Origin: Escherichia coli
Lineage (GTDB): Bacteria > Pseudomonadota > Gammaproteobacteria > Enterobacterales > Enterobacteriaceae
Assembly (NCBI RefSeq): GCF_044647545.1
Contig: NZ_CP172818.1
Length of the DNA stretch: 64,000 nt
Reading direction: 5' to 3' (one strand)
The notes below the pieces were generated by a model that worked only from the letters and a program-made list of their open reading frames with translations, was not told the DNA's origin and made no database searches. Each line of letters begins with the position of its first letter. Position 1 is the stretch's first letter. Positions 2,843 to 60,894 of this stretch are shown one piece after another. The position numbers and the translations under genes were made by a program.

Positions 2843-3139
2843 GATTGGGTCCTGGCGGATAAAAAACGCGCATACCTTAACGATAAGCGCGATGTTGTTC
2901 AAGTTGGATATGGGGTATGTATTCTTAATGATGTTGTCTTATCTCAAAACTTACGAAAGTAACGTTGTAGTTTATTCGAAAAACGAATTATTTGTAGTTC
3001 GATTGCAATATTCCTGAAAAATTTCTCCTCCTTCGAAATCTTTTCAGTAACAAAGATCATCCAAAACCTATAATCTTCACGGAACCTCATTAAGAGATCA
3101 TCCACGAGTCGTTATGAATATAATCCTCACCGTATTCGA

Positions 3140-4737
3140 TAAAAGAAATAAAAAATAAAACTAACAATCTATTGTTTTAAAAAAAAAAGGTTGGGAAAGA
3201 AGGGAAAAACAAGAAAAAAAATTTTTTCCCAAGAAAAAAAAAAACCGGGTAACAACAAACCGGGAAAAAAAAAAAAGGTTCCTGATAAAATACCCCCTAT
3301 CAACCGACAGAAACCTTGAACAACATAATACATTACCTATTCCTGAAATACTGAACAAGAAATAATTTTCGTTTTTTCCAACAATTAAAAATTCCAAAAA
3401 ATAAATCAGCAAAAAAATTCAAAAAAAATTCGGAAATTTTTCCAACCACAAAAAACTTATCCCAAAATCAGATGGCATTAATTTTAACCAAAAAAAGAAA
3501 ATGACCCCCCAATTTCGCCAAAGAAAAAAGGAAAAACCCCAAAAAAAATTTTTAAAATTAAAAAAAAAAAGAAATAATTAAGAATAATGATTTCTATATA
3601 TTAATGGCAACAAACAAATATTAAATTACAACACAACACAAACAAACTTTAAGTAAATTACTATACAAATCAATAACAATAACACCTTAACACACAAAAC
3701 AACCTACATTTCACAGTCATAACGAAAAAAATCATAAAACCACTCAATAAATAAAACACCGAAACAAATATAAAAAACATAAAAAAAAAAAAAAAAAAAA
3801 AACAAGAAAAAAAAAAAAAATAAAATAAAAATAAAAAAAAAAACGAAACGAAAAAATAATAAACAATAAAAGACCCCCACAAACAAACAAATCAAAACTA
3901 CACTCACTCCCCCTGATTGATTAAAAAAACATCTCTCAGATATAAAATACATAAAACAAACAAAAAAATAAATGAAAAAAAACAACAAATAAATAATTTA
4001 ATAATAAAAATAAAAATATTACGCAACAACAACTATCAACAAAAAAAATAAAAAAAAAAAACAAAGATAAGAAACGTAAGAAAAAAAAAAAAAAAAAAAA
4101 AAAAGACGAAAAAAAAAAAAAACTATGAATCCGAACAAGTAAAAAAAAAAAAAAAGAACAAACAATAACCAATCAAAAAAAAAAAAATAAATAAAAAAAA
4201 AAAATTCATTTAAAAAATGAAAAAAACACAAAAAAATAGAAAACAAAAAAAATAAAACAAACGGAAAAAAAAAAAAAAAAAAAAGAAGACTGAAGAAAAA
4301 AAATACTAAAAAAATAATTAATATTAAACCAAAAATAAAAAAAAATAAAAAATAAAAAACTAAAAAAACACAAAAAATCAACAAAAAATAAAAAAAAATA
4401 AACAAACCAAAAAAAAAAAAAAAAAAAAACGAAAACATTAAAATATATAACAAAATAAAAACTAAAAAAACAAAAAACAAACAAAAAAAAAAAAGAAATA
4501 ACAATAAAAAAAAAATTATAAACAACCAAAACAAATATAAAAAAAAAAACGAAAACAAAAAAAAATTAAAAAAAAAAAGAAAAATATAAAAAAAAAGAAA
4601 AAAGAAGAAAAATACAAAAAACAAAAAAATAAAAAAAAAAAAAAACACAAAAAAAAAAAAGAAAAACGAAAACAAGAAAAAAAAGAAAAATGTAAAATCA
4701 GCAAAATTCAGAAAATTTGAAAGAGAAAAAACCAAAA
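3140..4737. repeat. Poly(A)-dominated low-complexity tract on the + strand (T-rich on the - strand), non-coding
   Basis: Read directly: A runs longer than 20 nt (e.g. 3781-3802, 4081-4104) separated by single C/G/T or short motifs; frequent stop codons on the + strand; - strand gives only poly-Phe/Leu pseudo-ORFs. Boundaries approximate. Confidence 0.9.
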
Positions 4738-5031: not shown

Positions 5032-6720
5032 TTATTCCCCCACCATTTCAGTATTCGCCGCACCTGGCGGCACCATCGGGTACACTTTTTCTTCGGCATC
5101 AATACGCACATGGATCAGCGCCGGGCCAGGGCGATTGATGATTTCCTGTAATGCAGCCTGCGGATCGGTTTCGTTATTCAAATCACAGGTTTCGAGGCCG
5201 AATCCGGCGGCAATCTGCATAAAGTTGATTTTTCCCGGATAGGTAGCGGCAAAAACGCCCTGCTTGTAGAACAGACTCTGTTGCTGATGTACCAGCCCCA
5301 GCGCTTCGTTGTTCATCAGAATGATTTTGACATCCAGCTGATTTTCACTGGCGGTCGCCATCTCCTGAATATTCATCATCAGGCTGCCGTCGCCGGAGAA
5401 ACACAACACTTTGCGATCCGGGTTCGCCAGCGCTGCGCCAATCGCCGCAGGCAGGCCAAAGCCCATCGTGCCCAGCCCGCCGGAGGTCAGCCACTGGCGC
5501 GGGCGATTGAGCGGATAAGCCTGCGCCGTCCACATCTGATGCTGACCCACGTCGGTGGTGATAATCGCGCTGTCATCGACACAGGCGGCAACAGCGTTGA
5601 TCAGGCCGTAATGCGTTAACGGATCGCACGCTTTCGGGATTGGACACGGGAATTCGCGCTGCAAATCCGCCACCAACTGGTGCCACTCTGCACGCGGTTG
5701 CGCTTCCACCAGCGGGATCAATTGCGCCAGCACGTCATCAACATCCGCCTGAATCGCTACGTGCGGTTGCTTGATTTTGCCCAGCTCTGCACGGTCGATA
5801 TCGACATGAATGATTTTCGCATTCGGGCAGAACTGCTCGGTTTTGCCAATCGCCCGGTCATCAAAACGCGCACCGAGCACAATCAGCAGATCCGCCTCCT
5901 GCAGTATATAGTTGGTGCTGCGCACGCCGTGCATCCCCAGCATACCCAGCGACAGCGGATTCGCTTTTGGCAGCATGCCCAGCGCCATTAAGGTCATGGT
6001 AGTTGGCAATTGCGCTTTCTCTGCCAGTTCACGCACCCGTGCGGGCGCATTGATCACACCGCCGCCCAGATAAAGCACCGGGCGTTTGGCGGCGTTAATC
6101 ATTGCCGCTGCGTCACGAATGCTTTCTTCGCTAAAGGCGGGTGCGGCGGCTTTTTCTGCCATAGCTGGCTGTGCTTCAATCTCAAAAACCGCCGTTTGCA
6201 CATCTTTAGGAATGTCTATCCACACCGGGCCAGGGCGGCCTGATTGCGCAATGCGGAAGGCATCGCTCATGACCTGCGGGAGTTCTTCGATATGTCTGAC
6301 CAGATAGTTGTGTTTGGTGATGGGGATAGAGATGCCGTAGGTGTCCACTTCCTGGAAGGCGTCGGTGCCGATCATCGAGGCAGGAACCTGACCGGTGATG
6401 CAAATCAGCGGGATGGAATCCAGCCGCGCATCGGCAATGGCGGTCACCAGGTTAGTCGCACCCGGTCCGCTACAGGCCATACAGACCGCCGGTTTACCGT
6501 CGGTGCGCGCCATTCCCTGAGCGATAAACCCCGCGCCCTGTTCATGGCGAGCCAGAATATGGCGGATTTGCGTGCTTTGGCTTAAGGCATCGTAAACAGG
6601 CAGGATAGAACCGCCCGGAATGCCCGTCACAATCTTAATGCCCTGCTGTTCCAGGAAATGAACGATAAATTCTGCGCCGGTAAAGCGCTTACGCGTCGAT
6701 GTTGTGCCCGAACTTGCCAT
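5032..6720 (-). CDS. ilvB: Acetolactate synthase I large subunit IlvB (ThDP/FAD enzyme)
   Basis: 562-aa ORF with ThDP-binding acetohydroxyacid synthase signature (GDGSLMMNIQE...); immediately upstream of ilvN with a 3-nt gap. Confidence 0.95.
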   Translation of the reverse strand: MASSGTTSTRKRFTGAEFIVHFLEQQGIKIVTGIPGGSILPVYDALSQSTQIRHILARHEQGAGFIAQGMARTDGKPAVCMACSGPGATNLVTAIADARLDSIPLICITGQVPASMIGTDAFQEVDTYGISIPITKHNYLVRHIEELPQVMSDAFRIAQSGRPGPVWIDIPKDVQTAVFEIEAQPAMAEKAAAPAFSEESIRDAAAMINAAKRPVLYLGGGVINAPARVRELAEKAQLPTTMTLMALGMLPKANPLSLGMLGMHGVRSTNYILQEADLLIVLGARFDDRAIGKTEQFCPNAKIIHVDIDRAELGKIKQPHVAIQADVDDVLAQLIPLVEAQPRAEWHQLVADLQREFPCPIPKACDPLTHYGLINAVAACVDDSAIITTDVGQHQMWTAQAYPLNRPRQWLTSGGLGTMGFGLPAAIGAALANPDRKVLCFSGDGSLMMNIQEMATASENQLDVKIILMNNEALGLVHQQQSLFYKQGVFAATYPGKINFMQIAAGFGLETCDLNNETDPQAALQEIINRPGPALIHVRIDAEEKVYPMVPPGAANTEMVGE

Positions 6721-6765
6721 GCTCCAGTCCTTTTCTTCTGGGCCGACTTTCCGGGAGGTGCTTAA

Positions 6766-6798
6766 ACGAAAAACCCCGCCCGGTTTGCGCCGGCGGGG
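6766..6798 (-). terminator. ilvB attenuator (rho-independent terminator downstream of the leader peptide)
   Basis: GC-rich inverted repeat ccccgcc...ggcgggg (6774-6798) followed on the - strand by a U-run, between ivbL and ilvB. Confidence 0.75.
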
Positions 6799-6825
6799 TT
6801 TTGGAATCGTGTGTTGTTCCAGTCC

Positions 6826-6924
6826 CTACGGCGCATTGCCGACGACGACCACCACACGCACGACGACCACTGCGGCGGATGGCGCAGTTGGTAGTAGTTT
6901 TGCGTTGAGCATGGAAGTAGTCAT
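6826..6924 (-). CDS. ivbL: ilvB operon leader peptide (Val/Leu-rich attenuation peptide)
   Basis: Translated by hand: MTTSMLNAKLLPTAPSAAVVVVRVVVVVGNAP (32 aa), with the classic Val run. Confidence 0.9.
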   Translation of the reverse strand: MTTSMLNAKLLPTAPSAAVVVVRVVVVVGNAP

Positions 6925-7084
6925 TGGGGACCTTGTTGGTTTTGTGTTTAACAATATTTATACAAGCACAGCTTTACAGGGGAGACAATGGAAAATTTTT
7001 CAGCAAGGGAAAATTGAGGGGTTGATCACGTTTTGTACTGAATTGCGGGTAACAAAAAACCCCGCCGGAGCGAGGTTTCGTCAG

Positions 7085-7230
7085 TCGCCTGCGGCTGGTA
7101 ACCGCAAAGCACACTGTATTATGTCAACACTGAAAGTATACGTGTTCCGCGCAGAACGCGCAATTTCGGCACGAATTTTGACGTATTTAGTACATAGTTG
7201 AGTATCGTTCACAGTTTTCGTTTTGTCCAA
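7085..7230 (-). ncRNA. istR: Probable IstR antitoxin sRNA region (IstR-1/IstR-2), divergent from tisB; boundaries approximate
   Basis: Position between ivbL and the LexA box/tisB matches the known istR-tisAB arrangement; exact ends cannot be fixed from sequence alone. Confidence 0.4.
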
Positions 7231-7234
7231 ATAT

Positions 7235-7254
7235 TACTGTTTATTTATACAGTA
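7235..7254. promoter_or_regulatory. LexA (SOS) box at the tisAB/istR-2 promoter
   Basis: TACTGTTTATTTATACAGTA fits the CTGT-N8-ACAG LexA consensus; a TATAAT -10 hexamer follows at 7261-7266. Confidence 0.85.
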
Positions 7255-7488
7255 AACTTCTATAATATCACTGTACGCAATGTGTTATGCGGGGGCCGCA
7301 TCGTTACCCGGCGCACTAAGTCCTGGCTGAAACGGGTGGTGCCGTCAGCGCCTTAACCCCGCGTGAGCACACTGTGTTATGTCAACAAGCACAACGTTTC
7401 TCCTTGAGATACCGCGTGCACAACAGCTGGCAACAGGCAGCGGAAAGGTACGTCAGCTGGCAGTGCTCCTGAACCACAGGAGACGCGT

Positions 7489-7578
7489 ATGAGCCTGGTG
7501 GATATCGCCATTCTTATCCTCAAACTCATTGTTGCAGCACTGCAACTGCTTGATACTGTTCTGAAATACCTGAAGTAA
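7489..7578 (+). CDS. tisB: Type I toxin TisB (SOS-induced small membrane peptide)
   Basis: Translated by hand: MSLVDIAILILKLIVAALQLLDTVLKYLK (29 aa), downstream of the LexA box. Confidence 0.85.
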   Translation: MSLVDIAILILKLIVAALQLLDTVLKYLK

Positions 7579-7600
7579 TTCAGATTCAAGTCGCACCAAA

Positions 7601-7630
7601 GGGGAGCGGGTAACCGCTCCCCTTTCATAT
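7601..7630 (+). terminator. Rho-independent terminator after tisB
   Basis: Hairpin ggggagcgg/ccgctcccc followed by a T-rich stretch. Confidence 0.7.
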
Positions 7631-7857
7631 TTAGCGTGCGGGTTGGTGTCGGATGCAATGCTGATGCATCTTATCCGCCCTACCATCCCTCCCGGCAACA
7701 TTTATTGCCGCTTTTGTTTACATATTCTGCCGCTAAACAATTCCCCATTCCTGGCGTATATCTGGCTAACATTTATCAATGTGATAGATTCCTCTCCCGC
7801 ATTTATGGGAATGCGTAGTGACTTATTCTAATTATTTTTATAAAAGCATCCGTGATA

Positions 7858-9042
7858 ATGAAAAGGCATAGAAACGTCAATTTGTTATTGATGTTGGTAT
7901 TACTCGTGGCCGTCGGTCAGATGGCGCAAACCATATATATTCCAGCTATTGCCGATATGGCGCGCGATCTCAACGTCCGTGAAGGGGCGGTGCAGAGCGT
8001 AATGGGCGCTTATCTGCTGACTTACGGTGTCTCACAGCTGTTTTATGGCCCGATTTCCGACCGTGTGGGTCGCCGACCGGTGATCCTCGTCGGAATGTCC
8101 ATTTTTATGCTGGCAACGCTGGTCGCGGTCACGACCTCCAGTTTGACAGTATTGATTGCCGCCAGCGCGATGCAGGGGATGGGCACCGGCGTTGGCGGCG
8201 TAATGGCGCGTACTTTGCCGCGTGATTTATATGAACGGACACAGTTGCGCCATGCTAATAGCCTGTTAAACATGGGAATTCTTGTCAGTCCGTTGCTCGC
8301 ACCGCTAATCGGCGGTCTGCTGGATACGATGTGGAACTGGCGCGCCTGTTATCTCTTTTTGTTGGTACTTTGTGCCGGTGTGACCTTCAGTATGGCCCGC
8401 TGGATGCCGGAAACGCGTCCGGTCGACGCACCGCGCACGCGCCTGCTTACCAGTTATAAAACGCTTTTCGGTAACAGCGGTTTTAACTGTTATTTGCTGA
8501 TGCTGATTGGCGGTCTGGCCGGGATTGCCGCCTTTGAAGCCTGCTCCGGCGTGCTGATGGGCGCGGTGTTAGGGTTGAGCAGTATGACGGTCAGTATTTT
8601 GTTTATTCTGCCGATTCCGGCGGCATTTTTTGGGGCATGGTTTGCCGGACGTCCTAATAAACGCTTCTCAACGTTGATGTGGCAGTCGGTTATCTGCTGC
8701 CTGCTGGCTGGCTTACTGATGTGGATCCCCGACTGGTTTGGCGTGATGAATGTCTGGACGCTGCTCGTTCCCGCCGCGCTGTTCTTTTTCGGTGCCGGGA
8801 TGCTGTTTCCGCTGGCGACCAGCGGCGCGATGGAGCCGTTCCCTTTCCTGGCGGGCACGGCTGGCGCGCTGGTCGGCGGTCTACAAAACATTGGTTCCGG
8901 CGTGCTGGCGTCGCTCTCTGCGATGTTGCCGCAAACCGGTCAGGGCAGCCTGGGGTTGTTGATGACCTTAATGGGATTGTTGATCGTGCTGTGCTGGCTA
9001 CCGCTGGCGACGCGGATGTCGCATCAGGGGCAGCCTGTTTAA
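7858..9042 (+). CDS. emrD: Multidrug efflux MFS transporter EmrD
   Basis: 394 aa from ATG at 7858 (MKRHRNVNLLLMLVLLVAVGQMAQTIYIP...); the track ORF starts two codons upstream at GTG. Confidence 0.95.
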   Translation: MKRHRNVNLLLMLVLLVAVGQMAQTIYIPAIADMARDLNVREGAVQSVMGAYLLTYGVSQLFYGPISDRVGRRPVILVGMSIFMLATLVAVTTSSLTVLIAASAMQGMGTGVGGVMARTLPRDLYERTQLRHANSLLNMGILVSPLLAPLIGGLLDTMWNWRACYLFLLVLCAGVTFSMARWMPETRPVDAPRTRLLTSYKTLFGNSGFNCYLLMLIGGLAGIAAFEACSGVLMGAVLGLSSMTVSILFILPIPAAFFGAWFAGRPNKRFSTLMWQSVICCLLAGLLMWIPDWFGVMNVWTLLVPAALFFFGAGMLFPLATSGAMEPFPFLAGTAGALVGGLQNIGSGVLASLSAMLPQTGQGSLGLLMTLMGLLIVLCWLPLATRMSHQGQPV

Positions 9043-13674: not shown

Positions 13675-17021
<3,347 letters not shown>

Positions 17022-20426: not shown

Positions 20427-20840
20427 TTAGTTGATTTCGATACGGCGCGGTTTTTTCGCTTCCGGAATCACGCGTTCAAGATCGATATACAGCAGACCAT
20501 TCACCAGGTTAGCACCACGAACATGAATGTTCTCAGCTAACTGGAATTTGCGTTCAAAGTTGCGTTCAGCGATGCCCTGGTACAGATAGGTGCGCTCTTT
20601 TTGTTCGTCGGCGTGAGCACCTTTCACCACCAGCAGATTATCCTGGGCGGTAATTTCCAGTTCGCTCTCAGCAAAACCAGCCACAGCGATAGCAATGCGG
20701 TAATGGTTTTCGTCTACCAGTTCAACGTTATACGGAGGGTAGCCGCCATTACTCTGGCTCTGGTTGTTTTCTAAGTGGTTAAACAAACGGTCAAATCCAA
20801 TAGCAGAACGGTAAAGCGGGGATAAATCAAAGTTACGCAT
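20427..20840 (-). CDS. ibpA: Small heat-shock protein IbpA
   Basis: 137 aa [25 protein letters not shown]... Confidence 0.95.
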
Positions 20841-20960
20841 AATCAATAGCTCCTGAAATCAGCGAGAATGTAAGACCTTCCACAATGGACAGGTCAGGTA
20901 GCCAGAACACCCATCAGGCGCGTCCTCATCGGCTACGATGTAAAAATGGGTCTGGAAATG
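20841..20960 (-). promoter_or_regulatory. ibpA 5' UTR and heat-shock promoter region (expected sigma-32 promoter and RNA thermometer)
   Basis: Positional inference from known ibpAB regulation; motifs not individually verified. Confidence 0.45.
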
Positions 20961-35636: not shown

Positions 35637-37040
35637 TTACGATGACAATGTTCTGATTAAATTGGAAAAATCTTCTTTGATATCGTGGCTCTCTTCACGC
35701 AGCTGCTCGATCTTACGGCAGGCATGAAGCACCGTCGTGTGGTCACGGCCACCAAACGCATCGCCAATCTCCGGCAGACTGTGGTTAGTCAGTTCTTTCG
35801 CCAGCGCCATCGCCATCTGGCGCGGACGCGCCACCGAGCGGGATCGACGCTTGGAAAGGAGATCCGCGACTTTGATCTTGTAGTACTCCGCCACCGTCTT
35901 CTGAATATTGTCGATGGTGACCAGTTTTTCCTGCAATGCCAGCAAGTCGCGCAGCGCCTCACGCACGAAGTCGATGGTGATCGCACGTCCGGTAAAGTTG
36001 GCGTTAGCAATAACGCGGTTCAGCGCGCCTTCCAGCTCACGTACGTTAGATCGTAGACGCTTGGCGATAAAGAACGCCACTTCGCCCGGCAAACGAATGT
36101 CGTTTTCGTCGGCCTTTTTCATCAGGATCGCCACGCGGGTTTCCAGCTCTGGCGGTTCGATCGCCACAGTCAGTCCCCAGCCGAAGCGGGATTTCAAACG
36201 ATCCTCAACGCCGTTGATCTCTTTCGGATAGCGATCGGAGGTGAGAATGATCTGTTGATTACCTTCCAGCAGGGCGTTGAAGGTGTGGAAAAACTCTTCC
36301 TGAGATCGTTCTTTATTAGCAAAAAACTGAATATCGTCGATCAGCAGTGCATCTACGGAACGGTAGTAGCGTTTAAACTCTTCGATCGCGTTGTTTTGCA
36401 GGGCTTTAACCATGTCCTGAACAAAGCGCTCGGAGTGCATATAAACCACTTTGGCATTCGGCTTGCGCGCCATAATGCCGTTACCCACCGCATGCAGCAG
36501 GTGAGTTTTACCCAAACCCGTGCCGCCATAAAGGAACAACGGGTTATAAGCACCGCCAGGGTTATCTGCCACCTGGCGAGCCGCCGCGCGCGCCAGTTGG
36601 TTAGATTTACCTTCAACGAAGTTATCAAACGTGTGTTTGACGTTTACGTTAGAACGATAGGTCGGTTCTGCCGGAGCCGGGACGTTATCCCAACCCGAGC
36701 GCGTAGAAGGCGCAGCACGTTGCGGCTGCGTTTGCGCCACCTGTGCAGGGGCCGCGACGTTGCTCGTCACTGCCGCTTGTGGCGTTTGCGTCACCGGTTT
36801 GGTGCCGACTTCAAAACGCAGCTGTGGGGCATCCGCTCCGCAGAAACTGGTTAGCAGTCCATTGATATTATTAAGGTACTTGTCCCGTACCCAATCGAGG
36901 ACAAAACGGTTTGGCGCGTACAGGGCCAGCGTGTTATCGCTCAGTTCCGCCTGCAATGGGCGTATCCACATACTGAATTCTGTGGCTGGTAACTCATCCT
37001 GCAATCGGGCAAGACACTGCTGCCAAAGCGAAAGTGACAC
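35637..37040 (-). CDS. dnaA: Chromosomal replication initiator DnaA (GTG start)
   Basis: 467 aa from GTG at 37038-37040 ([30 protein letters not shown]...), AAA+ Walker [10 protein letters not shown]; track ORF extends to an upstream ATG. Confidence 0.98.
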
Positions 37041-50089: not shown

Positions 50090-50755
50090 ATGTCCCAGAT
50101 AGAAGCGGTATTTTTCGACTGCGACGGTACGCTGGTCGATAGCGAGGTCATTTGCTCTCGCGCCTATGTCACGATGTTCAGGGAATTTGGCATTCACGTT
50201 GACCTGGAGGAGATTTTTACCCGTTTTAAAGGCGTAAAACTCTACGAAATCATCGACATCATCAGTAAAGAACAGGGCGTGACGATGATCCAGGCCGATG
50301 CCGAGCACGTTTACCGCGCAGAAGTGGCGCGTCTGTTTGATACCGAACTTGAGGACATCGCAGGAGCGAACGAATTGCTGGCGAGCATTAACGTGCCGAT
50401 GTGCGTCGTCTCTAACGGTCCGATCAACAAAATGCAGCATTCGCTGGGTAAGCTCAAGATGCTGCACTACTTCCCGGAAAAACTGTTCAGCGGCTACGAT
50501 ATCCAGCGTTGGAAGCCCGACCCGGCGTTAATGTTCCATGCGGCAAAAGCGATGAATGTAAACGTTGAAAACTGCATTCTGGTCGATGACTCCAGCGCCG
50601 GTGCGCAATCAGGGATAGATGCCGGAATGGAAGTGTTTTACTTCTGCGCTGACCCGCACAATAAACCGATCGTTCACCCGAAAGTCACCACATTTACCGA
50701 GCTGGCGCAGCTGCCTGCACTCTGGAAGGCACGCGGCTGGAATATAACGGCATAG
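50090..50755 (+). CDS. yieH: HAD-superfamily phosphatase YieH
   Basis: 221-aa ORF MSQIEAVFFDCDGTLVDSE (DxDGT HAD motif I). Confidence 0.9.
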   Translation: MSQIEAVFFDCDGTLVDSEVICSRAYVTMFREFGIHVDLEEIFTRFKGVKLYEIIDIISKEQGVTMIQADAEHVYRAEVARLFDTELEDIAGANELLASINVPMCVVSNGPINKMQHSLGKLKMLHYFPEKLFSGYDIQRWKPDPALMFHAAKAMNVNVENCILVDDSSAGAQSGIDAGMEVFYFCADPHNKPIVHPKVTTFTELAQLPALWKARGWNITA

Positions 50756-50821
50756 TTCTTCACACTCCCTTCACTTACCCCGCTTAAATTGGCGCTCAAA
50801 GGTAAGTAAAGGGAGTTTGAT

Positions 50822-51289
50822 ATGTCTGTTTCACGTCGGGTAATACATCACGGACTTTATTTTGCAGTTTTAGGACCGTTAATTGGTGTTCTGTTTCTTG
50901 TCCTCTACATATTCTTCGCAAAAGAACCGCTGGTTCTTTGGGTGATAATACATCCAATTTTTCTCTTATTGTCGATAACTACGGGAGCTATTCCTGCGTT
51001 GTTAACCGGTGTAATGGTTGCCTGTCTGCCGGAAAAGATCGGGTCACAGAAACGTTATCGTTGTCTGGCTGGTGGCATAGGTGGCGTCGTTATCACCGAG
51101 ATCTATTGTGCAGTTATTGTACATATTAAGGGCATGGCTTCCTCGGAGTTGTTTGAAAACATTCTTTCTGGTGACAGTCTCGTTGTCCGCATCATTCCTG
51201 CATTGCTGGCAGGTGTGGTGATGAGCAGAATCATTACCCGTCTACCCGGATTGGATATTTCATGTCCTGAAACAGACTCTTTAAGTTAA
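50822..51289 (+). CDS. cbrB: Inner membrane protein CbrB (CreBC-regulated)
   Basis: 155-aa hydrophobic ORF. Confidence 0.8.
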   Translation: MSVSRRVIHHGLYFAVLGPLIGVLFLVLYIFFAKEPLVLWVIIHPIFLLLSITTGAIPALLTGVMVACLPEKIGSQKRYRCLAGGIGGVVITEIYCAVIVHIKGMASSELFENILSGDSLVVRIIPALLAGVVMSRIITRLPGLDISCPETDSLS

Positions 51290-59973
<8,684 letters not shown>

Positions 59974-60130
59974 AGTCATTTATTAATGGTTTTTATAACG
60001 AACATCCAGGTTCGGAAATTAATTTAATTGCGTGCAGAGAAAATAGCAATGCGCTATTGATAAAAATATGACCATGCTCGCAGTTATTAACTTTGTGTAA
60101 TTTTAGGAATTTATAAAGTTATATATAACA

Positions 60131-60160
60131 AATCCCAATAATTAAGTTATTGGGATTTGT
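60131..60160 (-). terminator. Rho-independent terminator after phoU
   Basis: Hairpin aaatcccaataa...ttattgggattt just downstream of the phoU stop. Confidence 0.6.
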
Positions 60161-60168
60161 CTGGTGAA

Positions 60169-60894
60169 TTATTTGTCGCTATCTTTTCCGGCCAGCAGTT
60201 TATCCAGCTCATCACCGCCTACATGACGGAAATCCTGCCCCTTCACGTAGTAGAAGATAAACTCACAAATATTCTGGCAGCGGTCGCCGATACGTTCGAT
60301 TGAACGCGCACAGAATAGCGCGGTAAGTACGCTCGGAATGGTGCGCGAATCTTCCATCATGTAGGTCATCAGTTGACGAACAATACCTTCGTACTCCTGA
60401 TCGACTTTTTTATCTTCCCGATAAATACGTACCGCTTCGTCAATGTCCATCCGCGCGAACGCGTCCAGCACGTCGTGCAGCATCTGGATGGTATGACGGC
60501 CCAGCGACTCCAGACTTACCAGCAACGGCTGATGCTGCTGGGAGAATTTCTCCAGCGCAGTACGGCAGATTTTGTCCGCCACGTCGCCAATACGCTCCAG
60601 CTCGGCAATGGTTTTACTGATCACCATAACCAGACGCAGGTCGCTCGCCGTCGGCTGACGTTTGGCGATAATGCGCACGCAAGCTTCATCGATCGCCACT
60701 TCCATCATGTTGACGTTCTTGTCGCCTTCGATGACGCGCTTCGCCAGATCGCTGTCCTGGTTATGCATCGCGGTGATTGCATCAGAAAGCTGCTGCTCCA
60801 CCATGCCGCCCATGGTCATCACCTGCGTGCGGATACTTTCCAGTTCGGCGTTGAACTGGCCGGAAATATGTTTATTAAGATTGAGACTGTCCAT
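60169..60894 (-). CDS. phoU: Phosphate signalling protein PhoU
   Basis: 241 aa [36 protein letters not shown]... Confidence 0.97.

Follow-up and report, generated by a model that had tools for sequence, protein, structure and literature searches.

Our analysis of the window, i.e. the whole stretch of 64,000 nucleotides under study, revealed that it is E. coli chromosome and that its positions 7054-7630 are an intact tisB/istR-1 type I toxin-antitoxin locus. As judged from its sequence, the module is almost certain to work in the same way as tisB/istR-1 of E. coli K-12. The locus is already known and is ordinary apart from a minority toxin allele, with serine at position 2 and threonine at position 23 of TisB (S2/T23), that is itself already present in public databases. 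An intact tisB/istR locus had been proposed here by the earlier note on this DNA, and all the elements listed in it were found in place, IstR included. Only the start given in that note (7085) was too short, since the IstR terminator sits at 7054-7080 and would be lost; the locus is therefore taken as 7054-7630.

A 701-base query covering the locus (7000-7700) showed 100% identity with E. coli FDAARGOS_497 and 98.3% with K-12 derivatives, and the RefSeq annotation of both FDAARGOS_497 and K-12 places tisB at the matching spot, in the interval from ivbL to ysdE/emrD. In the window tisB/istR occupies its canonical chromosomal position between ilvB and emrD, a position reported to be invariant (PMC9040746). 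The neighbouring genes are the following:

5032-6720, minus strand: ilvB
6826-6924, minus strand: ivbL
7702-7776, minus strand: ysdE
7858-9042, plus strand: emrD

The antitoxin side of the locus was identified with the Rfam model RF01400, which matched the minus strand at 7054-7183 over its full length (model positions 1-130 of 130) with 150.1 bits and E = 3.7e-31, the gathering score of the model being 45 bits. Thus, the covariance-model search for IstR suggested in the earlier note was positive, and the room seen upstream of tisB for a divergent sRNA is indeed taken up by an IstR gene, adjacent to tisB and divergent from it. The elements of the antitoxin side and of the shared regulatory region are the following:

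7054-7128, minus strand: istR-1, antitoxin sRNA of 75 nt, with a single-stranded 5' end, an internal stem-loop, a terminator hairpin at 7056-7080 and a U6 tail
7054-7194, minus strand: istR-2 transcription unit, the SOS-induced long form of about 141 nt, with its 3' end and terminator in common with IstR-1
7136-7164, minus strand: constitutive istR-1 promoter read from the sequence, -35 TTGCGC (7164-7159), 17-nt spacer, -10 TATACT (7141-7136)
7201-7229, minus strand: istR-2 promoter from a promoter scan, -35 TGGACA (7229-7224), 17-nt spacer, -10 GATACT (7206-7201)
7235-7254, no strand: LexA box TACTGTTTATTTATACAGTA, common to the divergent tisAB and istR-2 promoters and identical to K-12
7261-7266, plus strand: tisAB -10 hexamer TATAAT, read from the sequence and identical to K-12

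The length of IstR-1 is reportedly 75 nt, a value attributed to Vogel and colleagues in 2004, and from this length together with the TATACT hexamer upstream we infer that its 5' end is G7128; both forms of IstR stop at the U-run, at 7054. The fold predicted for IstR-1 leaves 12 nt free at the 5' end, followed by two hairpins. The RNA does not differ from that of K-12 (7054-7191 are identical), and IstR-2 carries one substitution relative to K-12, at 7192, near its 5' end. The latter end was placed near 7194 on the basis of the promoter (TGGACA and GATACT separated by 17 nt) and of the published length of IstR-2, about 140 nt (PMC9040746).

The box at 7235-7254, located between the tisAB -10 hexamer and the istR-2 -35 hexamer, is a predicted LexA operator for tisAB and also for istR-2. 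It departs from the palindromic consensus at two positions; 5 bp separate it from the istR-2 -35 hexamer, and 6 bp from the -10 hexamer of tisAB. Within the 64 kb of the window it is the sole match with three mismatches or fewer, and none of 100 dinucleotide-preserving shuffles gave any such match. The near-consensus LexA box and adjacent -10 hexamer described in the earlier note are hence confirmed. The same istR-1 and istR-2 hexamers, the TATAAT of tisAB and the ribosome binding site (RBS) AGGAGA are listed among the conserved elements of E. coli tis/istR loci in Table 1 of PMC11264685; the lengths of the open reading frames likewise agree with that publication. The istR-2 hexamers of the window are intact despite two substitutions in the spacer relative to K-12 (7208 and 7218).

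On the toxin side, the transcription start of tisAB was calibrated on published mutated positions (CC at +50/+51, G57 and C74; PMC7708055), and only a +1 at 7273 brings all four landmarks onto the expected bases. This calibration puts the RBS at +206 and the AUG at +217. The toxin side comprises the following elements:

7273-7630, plus strand: tisAB mRNA, with +1 at G7273, +42 at 7314 (active processed form) and +106 at 7378 (inactive form, IstR-1-directed cut)
7366-7386 (+94 to +114), plus strand: target of IstR-1 and single-stranded standby region for ribosomes, within the tisAB leader
7379-7492, plus strand: tisA open reading frame of 37 codons, identical to K-12
7478-7483, plus strand: Shine-Dalgarno sequence AGGAGA of tisB, 5 nt upstream of the AUG
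7489-7578, plus strand: tisB, 29-aa membrane toxin, allele S2/T23 (WP_022646298.1), identified as an open reading frame and by Pfam
7598-7633, plus strand: intrinsic terminator of tisB, a perfect 12-bp hairpin (7598-7609/7614-7625) with a GTAA loop and the U-rich tail CATATTTA

Throughout 7219-7492, which spans the promoter, the pseudoknot region, the standby site, tisA and the RBS, the tisAB leader is base-for-base that of K-12. The tisA frame has been described in >99% of loci, its translation being without experimental evidence, and the Shine-Dalgarno sequence of tisB is 100% conserved (PMC11264685).

The pairing of antitoxin and leader is recognizable in the DNA as a direct repeat of 22 nt, in which 7108-7129 and 7366-7387 differ by one mismatch that becomes a G-U pair in the RNA duplex. 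For IstR-1 starting at 7128, a duplex of 21 contiguous pairs with the leader is predicted, one G-U among them, located 92-112 nt upstream of the tisB RBS and containing the +106 cleavage position. This distance agrees with the published geometry of the standby site (PMC7708055), and the 5' end of IstR-1 is complementary to this site, some 100 nt upstream of the RBS, rather than to the RBS. Because the unconstrained prediction of the IstR/tisAB duplex surpassed shuffled sequences (-78 kcal/mol over about 70 nt vs -50 +/- 4 in shuffles), homology of istR and the tisAB leader beyond the 22-nt core, as expected for an antitoxin that arose by duplication, was also tested; the flanks aligned with a score of 18, which was reached by 51 of 1,000 shuffles and is not significant. 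A separate observation concerns a 12-nt motif, CA(A/C)TGT(G/A)TTATG, that occurs three times, at 7112-7123 in istR, at 7370-7381 in the IstR-1 target and at 7278-7289. The third copy corresponds to +6 to +17 of the primary tisAB transcript and may be due to chance.

The 29-codon TisB frame seen earlier stands, and its translation MSLVDIAILILKLIVAALQLLDTVLKYLK scored 35.5 bits (E = 1e-08) against Pfam PF13939 (TisB_toxin), for which the cut-off is 25 bits. The product is a small hydrophobic toxin of the TisB family that shares 27 of its 29 residues with TisB of K-12. Residues D5, K12, Q19, D22, K26 and K29, the charged and polar residues shown to be important for TisB toxicity (PMC11449926), are all present. 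The terminator claimed for TisB was likewise found, as the 12-bp hairpin and U-rich tail given above. It differs from that of K-12 in the loop (GTAA instead of GAAA, 7611) and in the tail (C instead of T, 7626), and the predicted energy of the hairpin is the same as in K-12, -28.8 kcal/mol. This terminator was not listed by a simple terminator scan, since with C in place of T at 7626 the tail has fewer T than the rule of the scan demands; the hairpin itself is unaltered on folding.

Alignment of 7000-7700 with the K-12 locus revealed 12 substitutions and no indels. Seven of these are point substitutions within 7054-7630, where there is no frameshift, stop, insertion or deletion, and the seven spare all promoter hexamers as well as the LexA box, leader, RBS and IstR-1 RNA. 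Like the locus of K-12 MG1655, the present one lies at the site from ivbL/ilvB to ysdE/emrD and has the divergent layout with a LexA box, a 29-codon tisB and the terminator hairpin; the istR-1 and tisAB promoters, the IstR-1 RNA and the tisAB leader with its standby site, pseudoknot, tisA and RBS are identical in both. The differences from K-12 MG1655 are found at 7192 (5' end of IstR-2), 7208 and 7218 (spacer of the istR-2 promoter), 7493 (TisB N2S), 7555 (TisB A23T), 7611 (terminator loop) and 7626 (terminator tail). The identity of RNA and DNA elements, the pairing geometry and the family membership of toxin and antitoxin were thus observed directly in the window.

Since the RNA and DNA elements are identical to those of the K-12 locus used for experiments, the mechanism worked out for tisB/istR of K-12 (PMC7708055, PMC11264685, PMC11449926) would be expected to apply, and expression, processing, toxicity and physiology are described here by analogy with the K-12 literature. 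In undamaged cells, LexA bound at 7235-7254 would repress the divergent tisAB and istR-2 promoters, while IstR-1 would be made constitutively from its own promoter. The primary tisAB transcript, starting at 7273, would be translationally inert, and its processing to the +42 form (7314) would expose the single-stranded standby site (7366-7386) and the 5' pseudoknot. Ribosomal protein S1 and the 30S subunit could then load at the standby site and slide to the structurally sequestered RBS of tisB (7478-7483). IstR-1, through its free 5' end, would form 21 bp with the standby site and thereby block standby binding and direct cleavage at +106, leaving an inactive mRNA. Upon heavy DNA damage LexA would be cleaved, tisAB mRNA would come to exceed IstR-1, and the 29-aa TisB would be made. 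Insertion of TisB in the inner membrane would dissipate the proton motive force and lower ATP, favouring a dormant drug-tolerant state (persistence).

Whether the present copy still works as a toxin-antitoxin pair has to be weighed against the absence of tisB/istR from about 1,060 of 5,426 complete E. coli genomes (about 20%). A limit of the search was considered as the cause of these missing matches and was rejected, the absence being real as shown by the ivbL-ysdE spacer, which measures 244 bp in tisB-less genomes vs 777 bp, and already published: loss of tisB/istR in phylogroup B2 has been reported (PMC9040746). In tisB-less E. coli N12 (L004:2126-2369, corresponding to window positions 6925-7701) the missing part has its ends roughly at the IstR and tisB terminators. 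A survey in print found 15% of assemblies without a match and 3% with interrupted copies (PMC11264685). As part of E. coli genomes lack the locus, its intactness in the window is meaningful, though not new. Both the losses and the interrupted copies, as well as the in-frame deletion of 12 nt that removes K12 in strain FORC_042, would be in keeping with a decaying remnant that no longer works as a toxin-antitoxin pair. Against this speak the seven point substitutions as the only changes from K-12 in 7054-7630, without frameshift, stop or indel, and the passing of the RF01400 and PF13939 models at full length, and we regard decay of the present copy as very improbable. Even less credible is a chance co-occurrence of a short hydrophobic frame and a LexA-like palindrome that form no functional unit. 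Short open reading frames are abundant, thirty of at least 20 codons overlapping 6500-8300, but the E values obtained for the IstR RNA (3.7e-31) and the TisB peptide (1e-08) and the lack of a LexA-box match in 100 shuffles all argue against coincidence, as do the 4,150 complete genomes in which 80% or more of the 701-base query is covered, all with best places at least 95% identical. An intact tisB/istR-1 module is hence the preferred reading, and no feature of the sequence speaks against its function.

The deletion in E. coli FORC_042 (L005:801-878) is an observation in its own right. Loss of 12 nt in frame leaves a tisB product of 25 aa, MSLVDIAILILTALQLLDAVLKYLK, without the essential K12, and this product is probably a dead toxin. 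The short peptide is still annotated as TisB, and the tisA upstream of it is marked as frameshifted.

What distinguishes the present copy is its toxin allele. The earlier note had remarked on a threonine in place of alanine in TisB, and for position 23 this is correct; it is not the single difference from K-12, however, as N2S had been overlooked. In a survey of 2,212 assemblies serine was present at position 2 in 85% of loci, N2 being a variant of the K-12 lineage, and TisB-N2S was toxic on overproduction and somewhat more toxic than N2 at low induction (PMC11264685). The consensus E. coli TisB (N2S; WP_000060506.1), known from O104:H4 and from B-lineage laboratory strains, shares S2 and 28 of 29 residues with the present peptide and has A23 where T23 stands here, owing to a single G-to-A change at 7555; an O104:H4 genome carries S2/A23. 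Peptides of the same family encoded by tisB/istR of Salmonella, Citrobacter and Shigella differ at 1-3 positions, e.g., L18M, L25V and K29R. T23 occurs in none of the homologues listed from other genera, and among the family members listed the T23 protein is named from E. coli only.

The S2/T23 protein is public as WP_022646298.1, 'type I toxin-antitoxin system toxin TisB'. Its exact 90-nt coding sequence was found in 82 of the 5,426 complete E. coli genomes (about 1.5%), 4,358 of which carry tisB, and the occurrence of an identical sequence in 82 independent complete genomes rules out a sequencing error as the source of T23. The allele is carried, among others, by a strain with the name ST648 and by human, dog, pig, poultry and wild-bird isolates. 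The carriers have one flanking uhp sequence type in common, which suggests that they are a single lineage. No description of A23T was found in PMC11264685 (main text and one supplementary file) or in a broader literature search.

The S2/T23 toxin is expected to be functional, because S2 is the consensus residue, T23 is a conservative change and D5, K12, Q19, D22, K26 and K29 are intact. On a helical wheel, position 23 has an azimuth of 40 degrees, equal to that of D5, and belongs to the polar face made up of D5, K12, Q19, D22, K26 and K29; with threonine there the hydrophobic moment is slightly higher (0.371 vs 0.353). This location on the hydrophilic face, adjoining D22 and one turn from Q19 and K26, gives some ground for supposing that in an otherwise intact locus A23T measurably changes TisB activity, towards stronger or weaker pore formation and depolarisation. 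The neighbouring D22 and the same-face Q19 are functionally important (PMC11449926), and the other natural substitution, N2S, did shift toxicity at low induction (PMC11264685). Yet the replacement of alanine by threonine is conservative and leaves the charged and essential residues untouched, and the persistence of the allele unchanged in 82 complete genomes indicates that it is not strongly deleterious, while being silent on a subtle effect. We therefore consider a measurable effect of A23T unlikely. A little more doubtful still is the specific proposal that the hydroxyl of T23, placed by D22 on the polar and putatively pore-lining face, could alter pore assembly or proton conductance and so change SOS-dependent persister formation.

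Several observations were made elsewhere in the window. Across 2924-3135, 33 single bases, 26 of them G, are dropped relative to FDAARGOS_497 and all other top E. coli hits, and from there to 4737 follow 1.6 kb in which A makes up 67% (A 1059, C 204, G 93, T 232) and runs of more than 20 A occur. The degenerate stretch 2924-4737, which is covered by no complete E. coli genome and lies 2.7 kb upstream of tisB, most likely arose in the source record as an artefact of base calling or assembly; related genomes have there a 3.1-kb island of 35% GC with two hypothetical genes, between uhpA and ilvN. The tisB locus is not affected by this stretch, being corroborated by 82 independent genomes. The bgl operon region at 50749-60182 (bglG/F/B/H, yieL) is 99.8% identical to K-12, and FDAARGOS_497 has at the equivalent place a different insert, which encodes a 'type III effector protein' and hypothetical proteins; the strain of the window is thus not FDAARGOS_497 and is mosaic relative to it. 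At 14779-14803 an indel of about 480 bp separates the two, the window being shorter, in a region of 6-phospho-alpha-glucosidase and PTS (glv-like) genes. Two further RNA elements exceeded their Rfam gathering scores. ROSE_2, an RNA thermometer, was found on the minus strand at 20834-20906 (100.4 bits). The last letters of its consensus, AUGCGUA, are those of the start of a small heat-shock gene, and in the related genome a ROSE element is annotated upstream of ibpA. AsdA, described in Rfam as an antisense RNA of dnaA mRNA, was found on the plus strand at 36450-36530 (99.7 bits).

[quoted passage not shown] The contribution of the present copy is hence the record of an intact locus that carries the S2/T23 toxin allele. 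If A23T did affect TisB activity, the SOS-dependent persistence phenotype would be altered in its carriers, among them the strain named ST648, and a change in persister formation through T23 would concern a clinically relevant lineage, apparently a single one. Such an effect would be of interest for persistence in ST648-type strains and would leave the understanding of the tisB/istR system unchanged.
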